Below, in pieces: positions 18,519 to 43,565 of a stretch of DNA of 64,000 bases (its first letter is position 1; each line of letters opens with the position of its first letter). The position numbers and the translations under genes were made by a program. Under the pieces are notes generated by a model. The model was not told the DNA's origin, ran no database searches, and worked only from the letters and a program-made list of their open reading frames with translations. The stretch is taken from assembly GCF_055900595.2 (NCBI RefSeq), contig NZ_CM148325.1. The stretch is one strand, 5' to 3'.

Positions 18519-18820
18519 TTTGTGATATGAGCCTTACAGCATATTGTCTGTCAGGCTTGAGTGCGATGCGTAAGATACAGAAAAGACCCCACACAAACAT
18601 GATGGAATTATGATTTTTTTCATATGAATGTCAACCAACACATTCATAAAACACTCGCACAAGTTCACTTTTTAAGCAACATGACGCCGATCACAACAAA
18701 ATATCGGCGAAAAAGGAGGGTAAATGCCATTTGACGTAGAGATAAGCAGATGAAATGATTACCCGCTTTGCGATTCACTCTCTGATGGAATAACAAATTG
18801 GAGATGGAAAAGTTTCTAAA

Positions 18821-19636
18821 CTAAAGAGTGTAGCGTATTTTAACGTGCTTATTTACAGGATAATATTTGTCACCTAATTCCTGCACTCTATTAGATACCC
18901 ATTGATTTAATCGTGCATCATCTCTGTATGTTTTCACGTTCAGAACGGAGAGCAATAACATCACTAGCGATTCAGGAAAAACAGGGTAAATATTTTTTAA
19001 GTGCAATAATAATTCATACGCAAGCGCCTGCTTAATAGGTGCGTCTGCATCCGGAATGCGCGACATTTCGCGAAGCCATTTTTCTACATGCTCACATTCT
19101 TTCCCTTCACGGAAAAGTCTCAACAAAGGCATATGGTGCTCAAGAAGAATGCATTTGCAATCTGTTCGTACTGAATCGATAAACTGCACTAATTTCTTAA
19201 GTCCGGTGAAGCGTCCGGCATGGATATTCTCTTTAATATCAAGAAACACGTCATCCTGATCATATACCCAAACGGTCCCTTTTTGATTTTCAAGTATCCG
19301 AAAAACAAACTTAATCGGGTAATCAGGGTAATCCACCCAGTCATAAACTCCAGGGAAATCATTAAACTGCACATTTATGGTAAGCGCATTGTCGGCTGCC
19401 CACTCGCAATCTCGTACGGCAGCCATGAGATAAATGAGTTTATCATCATCGACTAAATCATCACGACAATCATAAGGATAATCATAGTATTGTTTAATCA
19501 AAACCTTGAATATATCGACACAAGAAACCAGTGTACTTCTGATATCTTCAGGTAACTGATTGTTTTTAAACGTATTGTGTACGCTTTGTTTCGTATATAG
19601 CAACAAATTATTGTGCGGCGCTTTTAATGGTATCAT
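18821..19636 (-). CDS. yahL: uncharacterised protein, 271 aa, in an AT-rich segment
   Basis: Long ORF with clear ATG in a visibly AT-rich stretch; position between yahN and yahK. Confidence 0.75.
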   Translation of the reverse strand: MIPLKAPHNNLLLYTKQSVHNTFKNNQLPEDIRSTLVSCVDIFKVLIKQYYDYPYDCRDDLVDDDKLIYLMAAVRDCEWAADNALTINVQFNDFPGVYDWVDYPDYPIKFVFRILENQKGTVWVYDQDDVFLDIKENIHAGRFTGLKKLVQFIDSVRTDCKCILLEHHMPLLRLFREGKECEHVEKWLREMSRIPDADAPIKQALAYELLLHLKNIYPVFPESLVMLLLSVLNVKTYRDDARLNQWVSNRVQELGDKYYPVNKHVKIRYTL

Positions 19637-35467: not shown

Positions 35468-36556
35468 TCAACCACCTGCTTTCATTACCCATTCAGAGAT
35501 AAATTTATTACCCGGTACCGGCGGAGAGTACAAATAGCCCTGCAAAAAGTGTACGCCTTTACCAATCATTAAATCCGCCTGTTCCTGAGTTTCTACCCCT
35601 TCCGCCACAATACTCAGACCAGGCTTACGCGCCAGTTCGACAATATTGTCCACAATATGACCGGAGATTTCGTCAACACTCGCCATTTGCACAAACGACT
35701 TGTCAATTTTAATAAAATCGACCGGAAACGCCTGCAGATAACGATAGGTCGCATAACCCGTACCAAAGTCATCCAGCGCAAAGGTAATGTTGTGCTGATG
35801 AAGGCTGTCAAATATCGCTCTGGCTTCTGGCGTTACCGGAATGGGGTTGCGTTCCGTTAGCTCAAGAACCAGCTTGATTTTATCGTTACCTAATTTCTTG
35901 ACCAGGTTCAGACACTCTTTTTCAAATCCTGCGGCCAAAAAACATCCTGCCGAGACGTTGATTCCAATATGGAAATTATCCGGCAGCAAATGTTTTACTG
36001 GCATCAGAATATCCGCAGTCTGTTTCATCAGCTGGCGAGTCATTATGACAATAAGACCGGATGACTCCGCCAGAGGAATAAACTGATCCGGTGGGATAAT
36101 TCCCGTTTGCGGATGTTCCCAGCGGACAAGCACTTCACAGCCCGTCAGTACCCCAGTCTGCGCGCAGAAAACCGGTTGGATCCACGGTTTGAATTCGTGA
36201 TTTTCCAACGCCAGACTGATGGCTTCAGGCGTGACGATATGGTGATAGTGATTATCATTAATATATTTGTGACTATTATTACCCGTGGCGGATATGATCT
36301 CCGGATTGTACTGAAAGAAAATATCCCGCCAGAAAGTAATATCGCTCTGAATCCCCAGTTTCTCAAAGAGCTGTTTCTTTTGATGTGAAATGGTCTTTGC
36401 ACTGCGATTTCTGTACTGTGATATTTCTGTTACAGACATTCCCTGCATCAGCAGCTTGAGTAGCAGTCGTTCTTTCTCGGATACGCTACCAGGCAATGAC
36501 AAATGAACCGTTGTACCGAACTCTTGCAGAAAAACACGAAAATCACATGAATTCAT
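35468..36556 (-). CDS. pdeL: c-di-GMP phosphodiesterase with N-terminal LuxR-type HTH and EAL domain, 362 aa
   Basis: LuxR-type HTH followed by an EAL domain (ELTE motif); ATG at 36556 (MNSCDFRVFLQEFG). Confidence 0.9.
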   Translation of the reverse strand: MNSCDFRVFLQEFGTTVHLSLPGSVSEKERLLLKLLMQGMSVTEISQYRNRSAKTISHQKKQLFEKLGIQSDITFWRDIFFQYNPEIISATGNNSHKYINDNHYHHIVTPEAISLALENHEFKPWIQPVFCAQTGVLTGCEVLVRWEHPQTGIIPPDQFIPLAESSGLIVIMTRQLMKQTADILMPVKHLLPDNFHIGINVSAGCFLAAGFEKECLNLVKKLGNDKIKLVLELTERNPIPVTPEARAIFDSLHQHNITFALDDFGTGYATYRYLQAFPVDFIKIDKSFVQMASVDEISGHIVDNIVELARKPGLSIVAEGVETQEQADLMIGKGVHFLQGYLYSPPVPGNKFISEWVMKAGG

Positions 36557-37431
36557 GAACACACCTTTTATCTTTTATCGCTGTTCAGTATGAGTGATTA
36601 CCTGTGGATTCCTGAGCACACATAAGGGGTAACCATAAACATTAGCGATGCCATACGTATAACATCCCACATCACTATCAAGAAGATTATCTTTACCTCT
36701 GATGCTCGCTCAAAAACAGTTACGCTAAATACCTTAAAAAGGTAATCACAAGTCAAACTCAGGAGATAATCACGCAAGAATGCAATATTAAAATTCAGAT
36801 ACTCATTTTTGGTAATAAAGAAGTAGTTGGACTATTTCGATATTTATAATTTCCCACTACGTATTGACGCCCATTCATGAGTAAAGGCGCATTATATGAA
36901 TTTAACAATCCAGATCAACTGAAAATACCTCAACCTCATAAACACATAGCGTCAACATTCAATGACATAATGAGTAAAGATGTTGGTTATGCATACACGT
37001 CATTACTCTATGCCAATCCCTTAACAACCTGCTTTTTAAGACTGAATCCATTCAGCAATAGATAGCCAACATTATAACAATGACAATAAAAACAATATTT
37101 AAAACAATCAATAAAATATCAGACACAAACAATTAAACCTTAAACAACAAACAGTTACATTGATTTTAGTTGATTTGCGCTATGCGTTCCCCATGAATAA
37201 AGCGTCATTTCAAATTAGCACCAATATTTACATTAAATAAGACTAAGCTTATTGAACATTCACAACAGTCCAAACGTAGTGTTTGGGCTTCAATAGTTCT
37301 TTTCTTTTTTATTATCTGTTGCCTGGCAATCATCAATCGATACTAAGGGCTTAACTGTACAGATATAACGTATCAAGAGGTAAGAGAAACCGCGCCATAT
37401 GCAGACATGGCGCGGTTTTATGCAATAACAA

Positions 37432-39465
37432 TCACGCGTCCGGGAACATCACGCTATGGCCCGGCGCTTCACGATGGAGATGGATAAAGTTAAGGTGCCG
37501 CTCGTACTGGTCGAGAATATCGGTGATCACCTGCTCTTTGCTGTAGTCCATCAGGTCGTTACCCTGGCTGCCTTCTAACAGGAAGGTTTCCAGCCGGTAG
37601 TAGGTCGATTTACCGCTACGTGCGCGGTAGGTAAAGCCCGGCACCGAATATTGCTGCGGCCAAATCTGATAGACAAAGTTTTGCTCTTCGCCCATATGCA
37701 CCAGCAAATCCAGATGCCCCAGATGTTCGCCCTCTTCCGGCGGCAGGCTTTTTAGCTCGACGTACGCACCGCGCAACCGCAGTTCCTGCGCCACTTCTTC
37801 CATTGCCGGATAACAGACGGTTTCCATCATCTGTTTGGTGTAACGCGTGCCCGGATAATTCATCAGGCGCGAGAGACGTTTTTTCCAGCTCAGGCGATCC
37901 TGAAGCCCCAGCGGTCGCGGTGCGGTATCACGGTTGGCACTTTCACGGCGGTAATCTTCTACCTTCAGAGATTTATACAATCCCGCCATCACGAAGAAAA
38001 TCACAAAGCTGAACGGCAGCCCCATGATTACCGTGGTGTTTTGCAGCGCGGATATCCCGTTGGTCATTAACATACCGAGCGTCAGCAGACCAATGGCAAC
38101 CGACCAGAAGACACGCAGCCAGCCCGGCGCGTCGCTGTTGATATCTTTAAGCTGCGAGGTGAAATTCCCCAGCACCAGCGCGCCGGAGTCCGCCGAGGTC
38201 ACATAAAACAGCAGGCCAGTAATGGTGGCCACGGAGGCGCTAAAGGTAAATGCCGGATACTGCGCCAGCAGGCTGTAGAAGCCGCGCTCCGGATGGACCA
38301 TCGCTTCCTCGGCAAATGCCGCGCCGCCGTGGATGATTTCATACAGCGCGCTATTGCCGAATACCGAGAGCCATAACAGCGTGAAGGTAAACGGAATAAT
38401 CAACGTCCCCAGTACGAACTGGCGAATGGTGCGCCCACGCGAGATACGCGCCAGGAACAGGCCAACAAACGGCGACCAGGCTACCCACCATGCCCAGAAA
38501 AAGAGCGTCCAGTTATTCATCCACTCAACCGGGCGGTCAAAGGCGAAACTGTTGAGCGTCATGCCCATAAAGCGATTCACATAGTCGCCGACGTTCAGCA
38601 CCAGCGCATTGAGCAGGAACGAGGTGTCGCCCATAAACAGCACGAACAGAATCAGCCCCAGCGCCAGTGCGACGTTGAGTTCAGACAATACGCGAATGCC
38701 TTTGTCGACACCAGATGTCACCGAGATAGTCGCGATGATTACCGACAGCGCGATCAGCACCGCTTTCGCCGCCATTGAATCCGGGATATCAAACAGTACG
38801 CTCAGGCCATAGTTAAGCTGCACCACGCCAATGCCGAGCGTGGTGGCAATCCCGAAGATGGTGCCGATCACCGCTGCAATATCCACCGAGTGACCAATCG
38901 GCCCGTTAATCCGTTTACCGAAAATCGGATACAGCGCCGAGCGGATGGTGAGCGGCAAATTATAACGATAGCTGAAGTATCCGAGCGCCATGCCCATCAG
39001 CGCATACATCGACCAGCCCGTTAAGCCGTAGTGAAACAGCGTCCAGACCATCGCCTGACGCGCGGCCTCAATCGTCTGACCCGCGCCTTCCGGCGGCTGC
39101 ATATACTGCGTTACCGGTTCGGCTACGGAGAAGAACATCAGGTCGATACCGATCCCGGCGGCAAACAGCATCGCCGCCCAGCTCAGCAGGCTGAACTCAG
39201 GCTTAGACTGCTCGGGCCCGAGTTTCACCGAACCAAAGCGCGAACAGGCAATGCAGACCACAAAGACAATATAGAGCGTTGCCGCTAACAGATAGTACCA
39301 ACCAAAAGTTTTAGAAACCCAGTCCAGCGTGCGGCCAATCCACAGAGCCGAGAAGTCGCGAAACAGGATCGTTGTCAGGGAAAACAACAAAATCAGTCCG
39401 GCGGAAGTATAAAACACCACCGGATTGATTTTGTCCTTTTCCCTGCTGTGCGAAAGGTCTGTCAT
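37432..39465 (-). CDS. betT: choline transporter (BCCT family), 677 aa
   Basis: 677-aa polytopic ORF with a long cytoplasmic C-terminus; divergent from betIBA. Confidence 0.93.
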   Translation of the reverse strand: MTDLSHSREKDKINPVVFYTSAGLILLFSLTTILFRDFSALWIGRTLDWVSKTFGWYYLLAATLYIVFVVCIACSRFGSVKLGPEQSKPEFSLLSWAAMLFAAGIGIDLMFFSVAEPVTQYMQPPEGAGQTIEAARQAMVWTLFHYGLTGWSMYALMGMALGYFSYRYNLPLTIRSALYPIFGKRINGPIGHSVDIAAVIGTIFGIATTLGIGVVQLNYGLSVLFDIPDSMAAKAVLIALSVIIATISVTSGVDKGIRVLSELNVALALGLILFVLFMGDTSFLLNALVLNVGDYVNRFMGMTLNSFAFDRPVEWMNNWTLFFWAWWVAWSPFVGLFLARISRGRTIRQFVLGTLIIPFTFTLLWLSVFGNSALYEIIHGGAAFAEEAMVHPERGFYSLLAQYPAFTFSASVATITGLLFYVTSADSGALVLGNFTSQLKDINSDAPGWLRVFWSVAIGLLTLGMLMTNGISALQNTTVIMGLPFSFVIFFVMAGLYKSLKVEDYRRESANRDTAPRPLGLQDRLSWKKRLSRLMNYPGTRYTKQMMETVCYPAMEEVAQELRLRGAYVELKSLPPEEGEHLGHLDLLVHMGEEQNFVYQIWPQQYSVPGFTYRARSGKSTYYRLETFLLEGSQGNDLMDYSKEQVITDILDQYERHLNFIHLHREAPGHSVMFPDA

Positions 39466-41680: not shown

Positions 41681-43369
41681 TTGCAATTTGACTACATCAT
41701 TATTGGCGCCGGCTCTGCCGGCAACGTCCTCGCGACACGTCTGACTGAAGATCCGAACACTACCGTGCTGCTGCTTGAAGCGGGCGGCCCGGACTATCGC
41801 TTTGACTTCCGTACCCAAATGCCCGCTGCGCTGGCGTTCCCGCTACAGGGTAAACGCTATAACTGGGCGTATGAGACCGAGCCGGAACCGTTTATGAACC
41901 ACCGCCGCATGGAGTGCGGACGCGGTAAGGGGCTTGGTGGATCATCACTGATCAACGGCATGTGTTACATCCGTGGTAACGCGCTGGATCTCGATAACTG
42001 GGCGAAAGAACCCGGTCTGGAGAACTGGAGCTACCTCGACTGCCTGCCCTACTACCGCAAGGCCGAGACGCGCGATGTGGGCGAGAACGACTACCACGGC
42101 GGTGATGGCCCGGTAAGCGTGACCACCTCAAAACCGGGTGTCAATCCGCTGTTTGAAGCAATGATTGAGGCGGGCGTGCAGGCCGGTTATCCGCGCACGG
42201 ACGACCTTAACGGGTATCAGCAGGAAGGTTTCGGCCCGATGGACCGCACCGTCACGCCACAGGGCCGTCGCGCCAGCACCGCGAGGGGTTATCTCGATCA
42301 GGCCAAATCGCGCCCGAACCTGACGATTCGTACTCACGCTATGACCGATCACATCATTTTTGACGGCAAACGCGCGGTGGGCGTCGAGTGGCTGGAAGGC
42401 GACAGCACCATTCCGACCCGCGCGGCGGCGAATAAAGAAGTGCTGTTATGTGCAGGCGCGATTGCCTCACCACAAATCCTGCAACGCTCCGGCGTCGGCA
42501 ACGCTGAACTGCTGGCGGAGTTTGATATTCCGCTGGTGCATGATTTGCCCGGCGTGGGCGAAAATCTTCAGGATCATCTGGAGATGTACCTGCAATACGA
42601 GTGCAAAGAACCGGTTTCCCTCTACCCTGCCCTGCAGTGGTGGAATCAGCCGAAAATCGGTGCGGAGTGGCTGTTTGGCGGCACCGGCGTGGGTGCCAGC
42701 AACCACTTTGAAGCAGGCGGATTTATTCGCAGCCGTGAGGAATTTGCGTGGCCGAATATTCAGTACCATTTCCTGCCAGTGGCGATTAACTATAACGGCT
42801 CGAACGCAGTGAAAGAGCACGGCTTCCAGTGCCATGTCGGATCGATGCGCTCGCCAAGCCGTGGGCATGTGCGGATTAAATCCCGCGACCCGCACCAGCA
42901 TCCGGCGATTCTGTTTAACTACATGTCGCACGAACAGGACTGGCAGGAGTTCCGCGACGCGATTCGCATCACCCGCGAGATCATGCATCAACCGGCGCTG
43001 GATCAATACCGTGGCCGCGAAATCAGCCCCGGCGCGGAATGCCAGACAGATGAGCAGCTCGATGAGTTCGTGCGTAATCACGCCGAAACCGCCTTCCACC
43101 CATGCGGTACGTGCAAAATGGGGTACGACGAGATGTCCGTTGTGGATGGCGAAGGCCGCGTGCACGGGCTGGAAGGATTACGCGTAGTCGATGCGTCAAT
43201 TATGCCGCAGATTATCACCGGCAATCTGAACGCCACGACCATTATGATTGGTGAGAAAATGGCGGATATGATTCGCGGACGAGAAGCGTTGCCGAAGAGT
43301 CTGGCGGCGTATTTTGTGGCGAATGGGATGCCAGTAAGAGCGAAAAAACTGAATCGCGATTTGAACTAA
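41681..43369 (+). CDS. betA: choline dehydrogenase (GMC oxidoreductase), 562 aa as read here
   Basis: GMC family with GAGSAG Rossmann motif at residues 9-14; only start that keeps it is TTG at 41681, 5 nt after AGGAGG. Confidence 0.88.
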
Positions 43370-43565
43370 CGCAGGAACTTATAAGCTTGAGAGTTACCGT
43401 TCTACGATAAGGACCGAATCCTTATATAAAAAACATAGGTAACACTCATGCTTCATATCCAGTATTCATGATGCTGGTTTTTTGCTGATGTTTTTACCAG
43501 AATATTCCTGATACAGACTATTAATTCAAGCTTATCTGCGACAGATTTCATTTTCTGGATATATT

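Follow-up and report, generated by a model that had tools for sequence, protein, structure and literature searches.

The betT-pdeL spacer and its regulatory elements

We analysed a 64-kb stretch of Escherichia coli DNA (the window) in which pdeL and betT, both on the minus strand, are separated by 875 bp between the pdeL start and the betT stop (36557-37431). The pdeL gene is full-length, lies on the same strand as the spacer elements and encodes a LuxR-type HTH and an EAL domain. The spacer is 100% identical to that of strain Z0117EC0005, where RefSeq annotates pdeL and betT on both sides, and the homologous spacer of K-12-type genomes is 92.7% identical overall. The genes and elements of the locus are as follows, with their presence and positions read from the window itself.

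35468..36556, minus strand: pdeL (ORF list and RefSeq annotation); its ATG is at 36556, and the spacer abuts it
36557..36884, minus strand: putative pdeL 5' leader of about 330 nt, its length taken from the promoter position
36562-36568, minus strand: pdeL Shine-Dalgarno sequence AAAGGTG, within the conserved end of the leader
36720-36732: conserved block GTATTTAGCGTAA, a short invariant island
36831-36844: conserved block AATATCGAAATAGT, a short invariant island
36877..37065, plus strand: 62-aa ORF, the only ORF of at least 60 aa in the spacer, judged not to be a gene
36891-36918, minus strand: pdeL sigma-70 promoter TTGATC-16-TATAAT (-35 at 36913-36918, -10 at 36891-36896)
36949..36982, minus strand: conserved blocks CATCTTTACTCATTATGT and GAATGTTGACGC, invariant islands between the Cra box and the promoter
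37028-37040, minus strand: CDB, the Cra-dependent PdeL box, CTTAAAAAGCAGG in the window, located with K-12 primers 5028/5036
37041-37055: Cra (FruR) box GCTGAATGGATTCAG, identical to K-12, about 500 bp upstream of the pdeL ATG (-500)
37052..37126, minus strand: yahV ortholog of 24 codons with a GTG start, product MSDILLIVLNIVFIVIVIMLAIYC, in gap-free codon alignment with K-12 yahV (b4730)
37131..37143, minus strand: conserved block TTAAGGTTTAATT, just upstream of the yahV start
37236-37253: CIB, the Cra-independent PdeL box, AATAAG-N6-CTTATT, located with K-12 EMSA oligos 4991/4997 and a figure legend
37382..37418, minus strand: betT intrinsic terminator, a 14-bp G+C-rich hairpin AAACCGCGCCAUGU...AUAUGGCGCGGUUU followed by UUUCUCUU
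37432..39465, minus strand: betT (ORF list and RefSeq annotation)

An initial annotation, made from the letters of the window alone, had described an AT-rich gap of about 870 bp between the two genes, and its coordinates, checked against the ORFs, are exact. The GC content of the spacer is 0.344, as against 0.502 for the 64-kb window. No stretch of this size in the 64 kb has a lower GC content, and the value lies in the lowest 0.1% of all 875-bp windows, so the AT-richness is genuine and well beyond chance. Further low-GC stretches, with GC of 0.37-0.38 over 875 bp, occur at 18800-19200, 25426 and 43200-43450.

The betT end of the spacer is occupied by an intrinsic terminator. Its stem begins 13 nt past the betT stop, the U-rich UUUCUCUU follows directly, and the fold reaches -22.7 kcal/mol (z = -5.55), with none of 200 shuffles as good. 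A simple terminator scan did not list this hairpin; a repeat search of the spacer recovered it as a perfect 12-nt inverted repeat (I4) and found no repeat besides it. An Rfam scan of 36000-38000 at E<=1 returned zero matches. Since about 50 bp at the betT end belong to the terminator of betT, not all of the spacer serves pdeL.

As a whole, the spacer is the already known control region of E. coli pdeL (yahA), which has been characterised in K-12. In that strain the entire betT-pdeL spacer is taken as PpdeL (Reinders et al., Jenal lab, bioRxiv 10.1101/2021.10.01.462762) and comprises a Cra box, an adjoining CDB and a distal CIB palindrome that is contested by H-NS, with IHF and Fis sites mentioned between CIB and CDB. 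According to the same preprint, Cra and PdeL recruit RNA polymerase to PpdeL, and H-NS represses pdeL; other K-12 sources on pdeL control are a review by Hengge (PMC5052742) and Shimada et al. (PMC3946193). We placed the K-12 sites on the window by alignment and with the EMSA oligo and mutagenesis primer sequences given in the preprint supplement. Three of the four K-12 sites, namely the Cra box, CIB and the promoter, are present and conserved, whereas the fourth, CDB, is present but diverged, and the order and spacing of the elements are as in K-12. The proposal that the spacer holds nucleoid-protein-bound regulatory DNA for pdeL is thus borne out by the K-12 PpdeL sites and by their conservation here.

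The Cra box is the site that was scrambled in the K-12 CB- mutant, and it is covered by EMSA oligo 4695. It is also the top match to the Cra consensus in the entire 64-kb window, with 1 mismatch, and is invariant in all lineages aligned. The neighbouring CDB reads CTTAAAAAGCAGG in the window and CTTAATGAGTGGG in K-12, with 9/13 positions identical and 4/13 different, and in the alignment it is not conserved in L006 or L007, the two diverged lineages described below. Because CDB is both altered here and unconserved in other lineages, the strength of PdeL autoregulation may differ quantitatively in the window allele. The distal operator CIB (AATAAGCTTAGTCTTATT in the window) has both half-sites intact and one spacer base unlike K-12, and in K-12 it is overlapped by an H-NS site (10.1101/2021.10.01.462762). 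When the spacer was searched with the high-affinity H-NS motif TCGATAAATT, 2 matches were obtained at <=2 mismatches, against 2.1 expected from composition. As the motif is not enriched beyond composition, H-NS binding is predicted here from the AT content (GC 0.344) and from the K-12 data.

The pdeL promoter ranked at the top of our promoter scan (10/12) and is 100% identical to K-12 and 91-95% identical to the diverged lineages. The scan gave 3 promoter-like matches in the spacer, compared with 4.5 +/- 2.2 expected, and only the one backed by the literature was retained. For this match, genomic SELEX with RpoD holoenzyme reported the TTGATC/TATAAT hexamers for the betT>yahA spacer, together with an H-NS mark (PMC3946193). 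In addition, the promoter lies within fragment 4695-4283, which was used for RNAP recruitment in K-12, and coincides with the 'P1' mutagenesis primer. Judging from the position of the -10 element, pdeL transcription probably starts near 36884. A plus-strand promoter-like match is present at 37080-37108, antisense to yahV.

Conservation and alternative junctions in Escherichia

In a protein-seeded scan of one genome per species, which is limited by its peptide patterns, full-length PdeL was found only in Escherichia. DNA homologous to the upstream region occurs only in E. coli, L006 (Escherichia sp. E1V33) and L007 (strain SCPM-O-B-8794); in E. albertii, E. whittamii and L015 the DNA upstream of pdeL is unrelated to the spacer. 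Our alignment of 11 sequences includes the two diverged lineages L006 and L007. The spacer is identical to that of L006 and L007 at fractions of 0.73 and 0.71, respectively, and the corresponding pdeL synonymous differences are 0.24 and 0.26, which suggests that the spacer on average drifts neutrally, at the pdeL synonymous rate. Three islands are invariant in this alignment: CIB at 37235-37256, the Cra box at 37040-37057 and the promoter at 36884-36927. These islands lend independent support, from comparative data, to the view that the K-12 sites function in the window allele.

Conservation is not confined to the published sites. The blocks CATCTTTACTCATTATGT, GAATGTTGACGC, AATATCGAAATAGT and GTATTTAGCGTAA are likewise invariant islands, and TTAAGGTTTAATT is invariant in all lineages at 12/13 positions; all five match none of the published Cra, PdeL and promoter sites. 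Since TTAAGGTTTAATT stays invariant even where yahV is broken, it is more likely a protein-binding site than a ribosome-binding site of yahV. Relative to K-12, the stretch from CIB to the promoter is 10-16% diverged. Strain 131 (L050) combines a spacer 98.9% identical to that of the window with a pdeL that differs at 12.9% of synonymous sites, a pattern that indicates a recombination mosaic across the pdeL start.

Comparison of gene order showed that the Escherichia betT-pdeL junction comes in two alternative forms among the genomes compared, one with the AT-rich module and one with the autotransporter gene ehaA plus 141 bp. In O157:H7 (L061, NZ_CP038380.1 4327500-4336100) the order is betT, 573 bp, ehaA, 141 bp and pdeL. 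O157:H7 shares only 42 bp of the spacer, which carry the betT terminator, the one part common to O157-type genomes, where ehaA follows betT; the module with the Cra box, CIB and the promoter is absent. In the EAL domain the identity of the O157 PdeL protein is ~100%, whereas residues 1-30 and 61-120 reach only 70-83%. This pattern places the recombination breakpoint inside pdeL, and it suggests that the N-terminal side of PdeL, which binds DNA, is exchanged together with the module upstream of it. The ehaA gene also immediately precedes pdeL in E. whittamii and L015, and remnants of it occur in E. albertii. We considered whether the spacer itself is a remnant of an EhaA pseudogene; a tblastn search of EhaA against the spacer found nothing, and the idea was rejected.

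The L006 contig (1-3000) shows a further arrangement, with the pdeL module directly after ykgF/ykgG (lutBC; ykgG = lutC) and the bet operon absent. Its homology to the window begins about 62 bp from the betT stop, near 37369, so that the spacer appears to join a terminator piece from the bet side to a module from the pdeL side. Natural isolates also carry insertion sequences in the spacer: IS1 in L005 at about window position 36993, IS1A inside yahV in L057 at about 37085, and IS3 in L056, 87 bp upstream of the pdeL ATG at about 36644. In about 130 records the spacer match is split into two places. According to PMC11335895, H-NS-bound AT-rich DNA attracts transposition, and the insertions fit this behaviour.

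yahV, the 62-aa frame and the pdeL leader

The initial annotation had taken the spacer to be non-coding. The regulatory reading stands, but the spacer is not strictly non-coding, as it contains the intact 24-codon yahV at 37052..37126 on the minus strand; the earlier account was essentially right and incomplete, having overlooked yahV and the betT terminator. In MG1655, YahV (b4730) was found by chromosomal SPA tagging (VanOrsdel et al. 2018, PMC6001520), and translation of the window-type yahV is predicted from this K-12 detection. The peptide encoded here is a single hydrophobic helix with a GRAVY of 2.7. It is identical to K-12 YahV at 17/24 residues, the differences being C2S, N7I, G15V, A17V, I19M, V21A and I23Y. 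The exact window sequence is absent from a 15-billion-sequence protein collection, no NCBIfam model matches the window or the K-12 variant, and Pfam gave nothing above the cut-off for the YahV variants. The TGA stop of yahV falls inside the Cra box and is thus held in place by the Cra site.

Annotation of yahV follows the K-12 sequence closely. In K-12-type genomes RefSeq places a single gene in the spacer, 'protein YahV', at the same site, and the gene is unannotated in the RefSeq genome identical to the window; two intermediate variants are labelled 'hypothetical protein', so that only the K-12 sequence is named. Of 5,426 complete genomes, 3,720 contain the yahV segment. Around 1,720 of the records are >=95% identical to the window, and in those of them that were sampled yahV is unannotated, whereas the K-12-type records are annotated. 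According to PMC9976479, yahV occurs in phylogroups A, B1 and C only. Because an intact yahV is passed over in the sampled records of the window type, the reported restriction is probably an annotation artefact.

Whether the YahV peptide itself matters is a separate question, and the evidence divides. None of the 12 E. coli alleles sampled interrupts the frame; they encode five protein variants, each strongly hydrophobic (GRAVY 2.7-3.1), and a tagged product accumulates in K-12 (PMC6001520). We nevertheless give roughly even odds to the explanation that yahV is no functional gene but a fortuitous frame in T-rich DNA with low-level translation, so that the region is in effect purely regulatory. 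Changes among the E. coli alleles amount to about 10-11 nonsynonymous and 2 synonymous, and the yahV segment is the least conserved of the spacer, its 57-63% identity to L006 and L007 lying under the neutral expectation. Moreover, the ORF is broken in both of these lineages, by a GTA start and a stop at codon 9 in L006 and by a 1-nt deletion leading to a stop at codon 6 in L007, and conservation of yahV does not extend beyond E. coli. Its stop codon is dictated by the overlapping Cra box, and the only Shine-Dalgarno-like sequence, a poor AAGG within the conserved block TTAAGGTTTAATT, is 11 nt from the GTG. Taken over the 12 alleles sampled, the comparative data thus give no evidence of selection on the peptide, and yahV, despite its translation in K-12, looks like an ORF of recent or accidental origin. 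A type I toxin was also considered, YahV being small and hydrophobic, but nothing was found to back the idea; where the RASTA paper prints 'yahV', yhaV is meant.

Were the 62-aa ORF a real protein-coding gene, much of the region would be coding DNA instead of regulatory DNA, but we assign this reading a next to negligible probability. The ORF is open in 10/11 of the E. coli alleles examined and is named 'hypothetical protein' in some E. coli GenBank records. However, when its conservation was checked, as the initial annotation had proposed in dismissing it, the frame proved to be broken in the diverged Escherichia lineages, with the start lost and several in-frame stops in L006 and several stops in L007, and it is frameshifted in E. 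coli A37. It has no Shine-Dalgarno sequence, belongs to no Pfam or NCBIfam family and is unannotated in all RefSeq loci inspected. The ORF runs antisense to the promoter, the conserved blocks, the Cra box and the yahV stop, and its conserved stretches coincide with the promoter and the Cra box of the other strand, so that its apparent conservation within E. coli can be ascribed to the regulatory sites there. A 59-aa minus-strand ORF gave nothing above the cut-off in Pfam or NCBIfam. At the RNA level, conservation of the pdeL leader raised a further alternative. Over its final 100 nt (36557-36655) the leader keeps 90-92% identity with lineages that differ by 0.24-0.26 at pdeL synonymous sites, and this could be explained if the leader (36557-36884) were a structured cis-regulatory RNA such as a riboswitch, a thermosensor or an RBS-sequestering helix. 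RNAalifold indeed predicts a long helix that pairs -93..-68 with the Shine-Dalgarno sequence and the AUG, yet across four lineages compensatory change is seen in 0 of the 37 predicted pairs. Folding is not unusual relative to shuffles (z = -1.25 for the whole leader and z = +1.0 for the proximal 129 nt), Rfam offers no match at E<=1, and the conservation is equally explicable by protein-binding DNA (e.g. a downstream H-NS site) or by sRNA or CsrA sites. We consider a structured leader quite improbable and dropped it, given that it folds no better than shuffles and has zero compensatory pairs. The same final 100 nt are much more conserved than the remaining leader, and they matched no known binding site.

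A composite control region and its K-12 counterparts

Taken together, we read the spacer as a composite of the pdeL control region and the betT 3' end signals, operating by the K-12 mechanism in the window allele, and we put the probability of this reading at about 90%. Binding, silencing, the switch and YahV translation are carried over from K-12 to elements whose conservation was established in the window. According to this reading, transcription of betT on the minus strand would end at the strong hairpin terminator, and H-NS would silence the remaining AT-rich module of ~810 bp. Cra, at its box some 500 bp ahead of the pdeL start codon, would let PdeL bind the adjoining CDB, and PdeL would bind the distal CIB as well, 200 bp further up, in competition with H-NS. 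When c-di-GMP is low, tetramers of PdeL presumably span the two boxes and counteract H-NS, and PdeL would recruit RNA polymerase to TTGATC-16-TATAAT. The expected outcome is positive autoregulation and a bistable switch of pdeL, a gene for a c-di-GMP phosphodiesterase that is also a transcription factor. The pdeL mRNA would carry a leader of ~330 nt. Between both PdeL boxes lies yahV, a 24-codon ORF for a hydrophobic peptide, translated in K-12.

As a textbook-style promoter that is silenced by H-NS and activated by Cra and PdeL, the region has little discovery value in itself. Two consequences extend beyond the window. Judging from the records sampled, roughly 1,700 of the about 3,700 complete E. 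coli records with the locus carry an intact yahV that annotation pipelines pass over. Furthermore, because the junction upstream of pdeL exists in two alternatives, the module or ehaA, O157-type strains may fall outside the K-12 model of pdeL bistability. A more speculative possibility, which we hold to be unlikely, is that yahV arose recently, in E. coli alone, as a gene for a small membrane protein and is mechanically coupled to the pdeL switch. As yahV lies between the two PdeL operators with its stop in the Cra box, its transcription or translation could disturb H-NS silencing or be blocked by Cra and PdeL. If such a coupling were true, the many strains with the window allele, which has another YahV and a diverged CDB, may switch at a different threshold.

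The closest known system is PpdeL of K-12, with which the composite control region has in common the locus, the flanking genes, the Cra box, the promoter and, bar one spacer base, the CIB palindrome; it differs in 4/13 positions of CDB, in the 10-16% divergence between CIB and the promoter and in a 1-nt indel in the leader. The yahV of the window agrees with K-12 yahV in position, strand, GTG start, length, frame, the stop in the Cra box and the hydrophobic helix, but differs at 7/24 residues and is the variant that RefSeq leaves unannotated. More broadly, the region appears to resemble bgl and proU in its AT-rich DNA of several hundred bp, its silencing by H-NS, the relief of silencing by an activator and its frequent natural IS insertions. 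Unlike in those systems, the counter-silencer of pdeL would be its own product, the c-di-GMP-sensing 'trigger' phosphodiesterase PdeL, acting with Cra.
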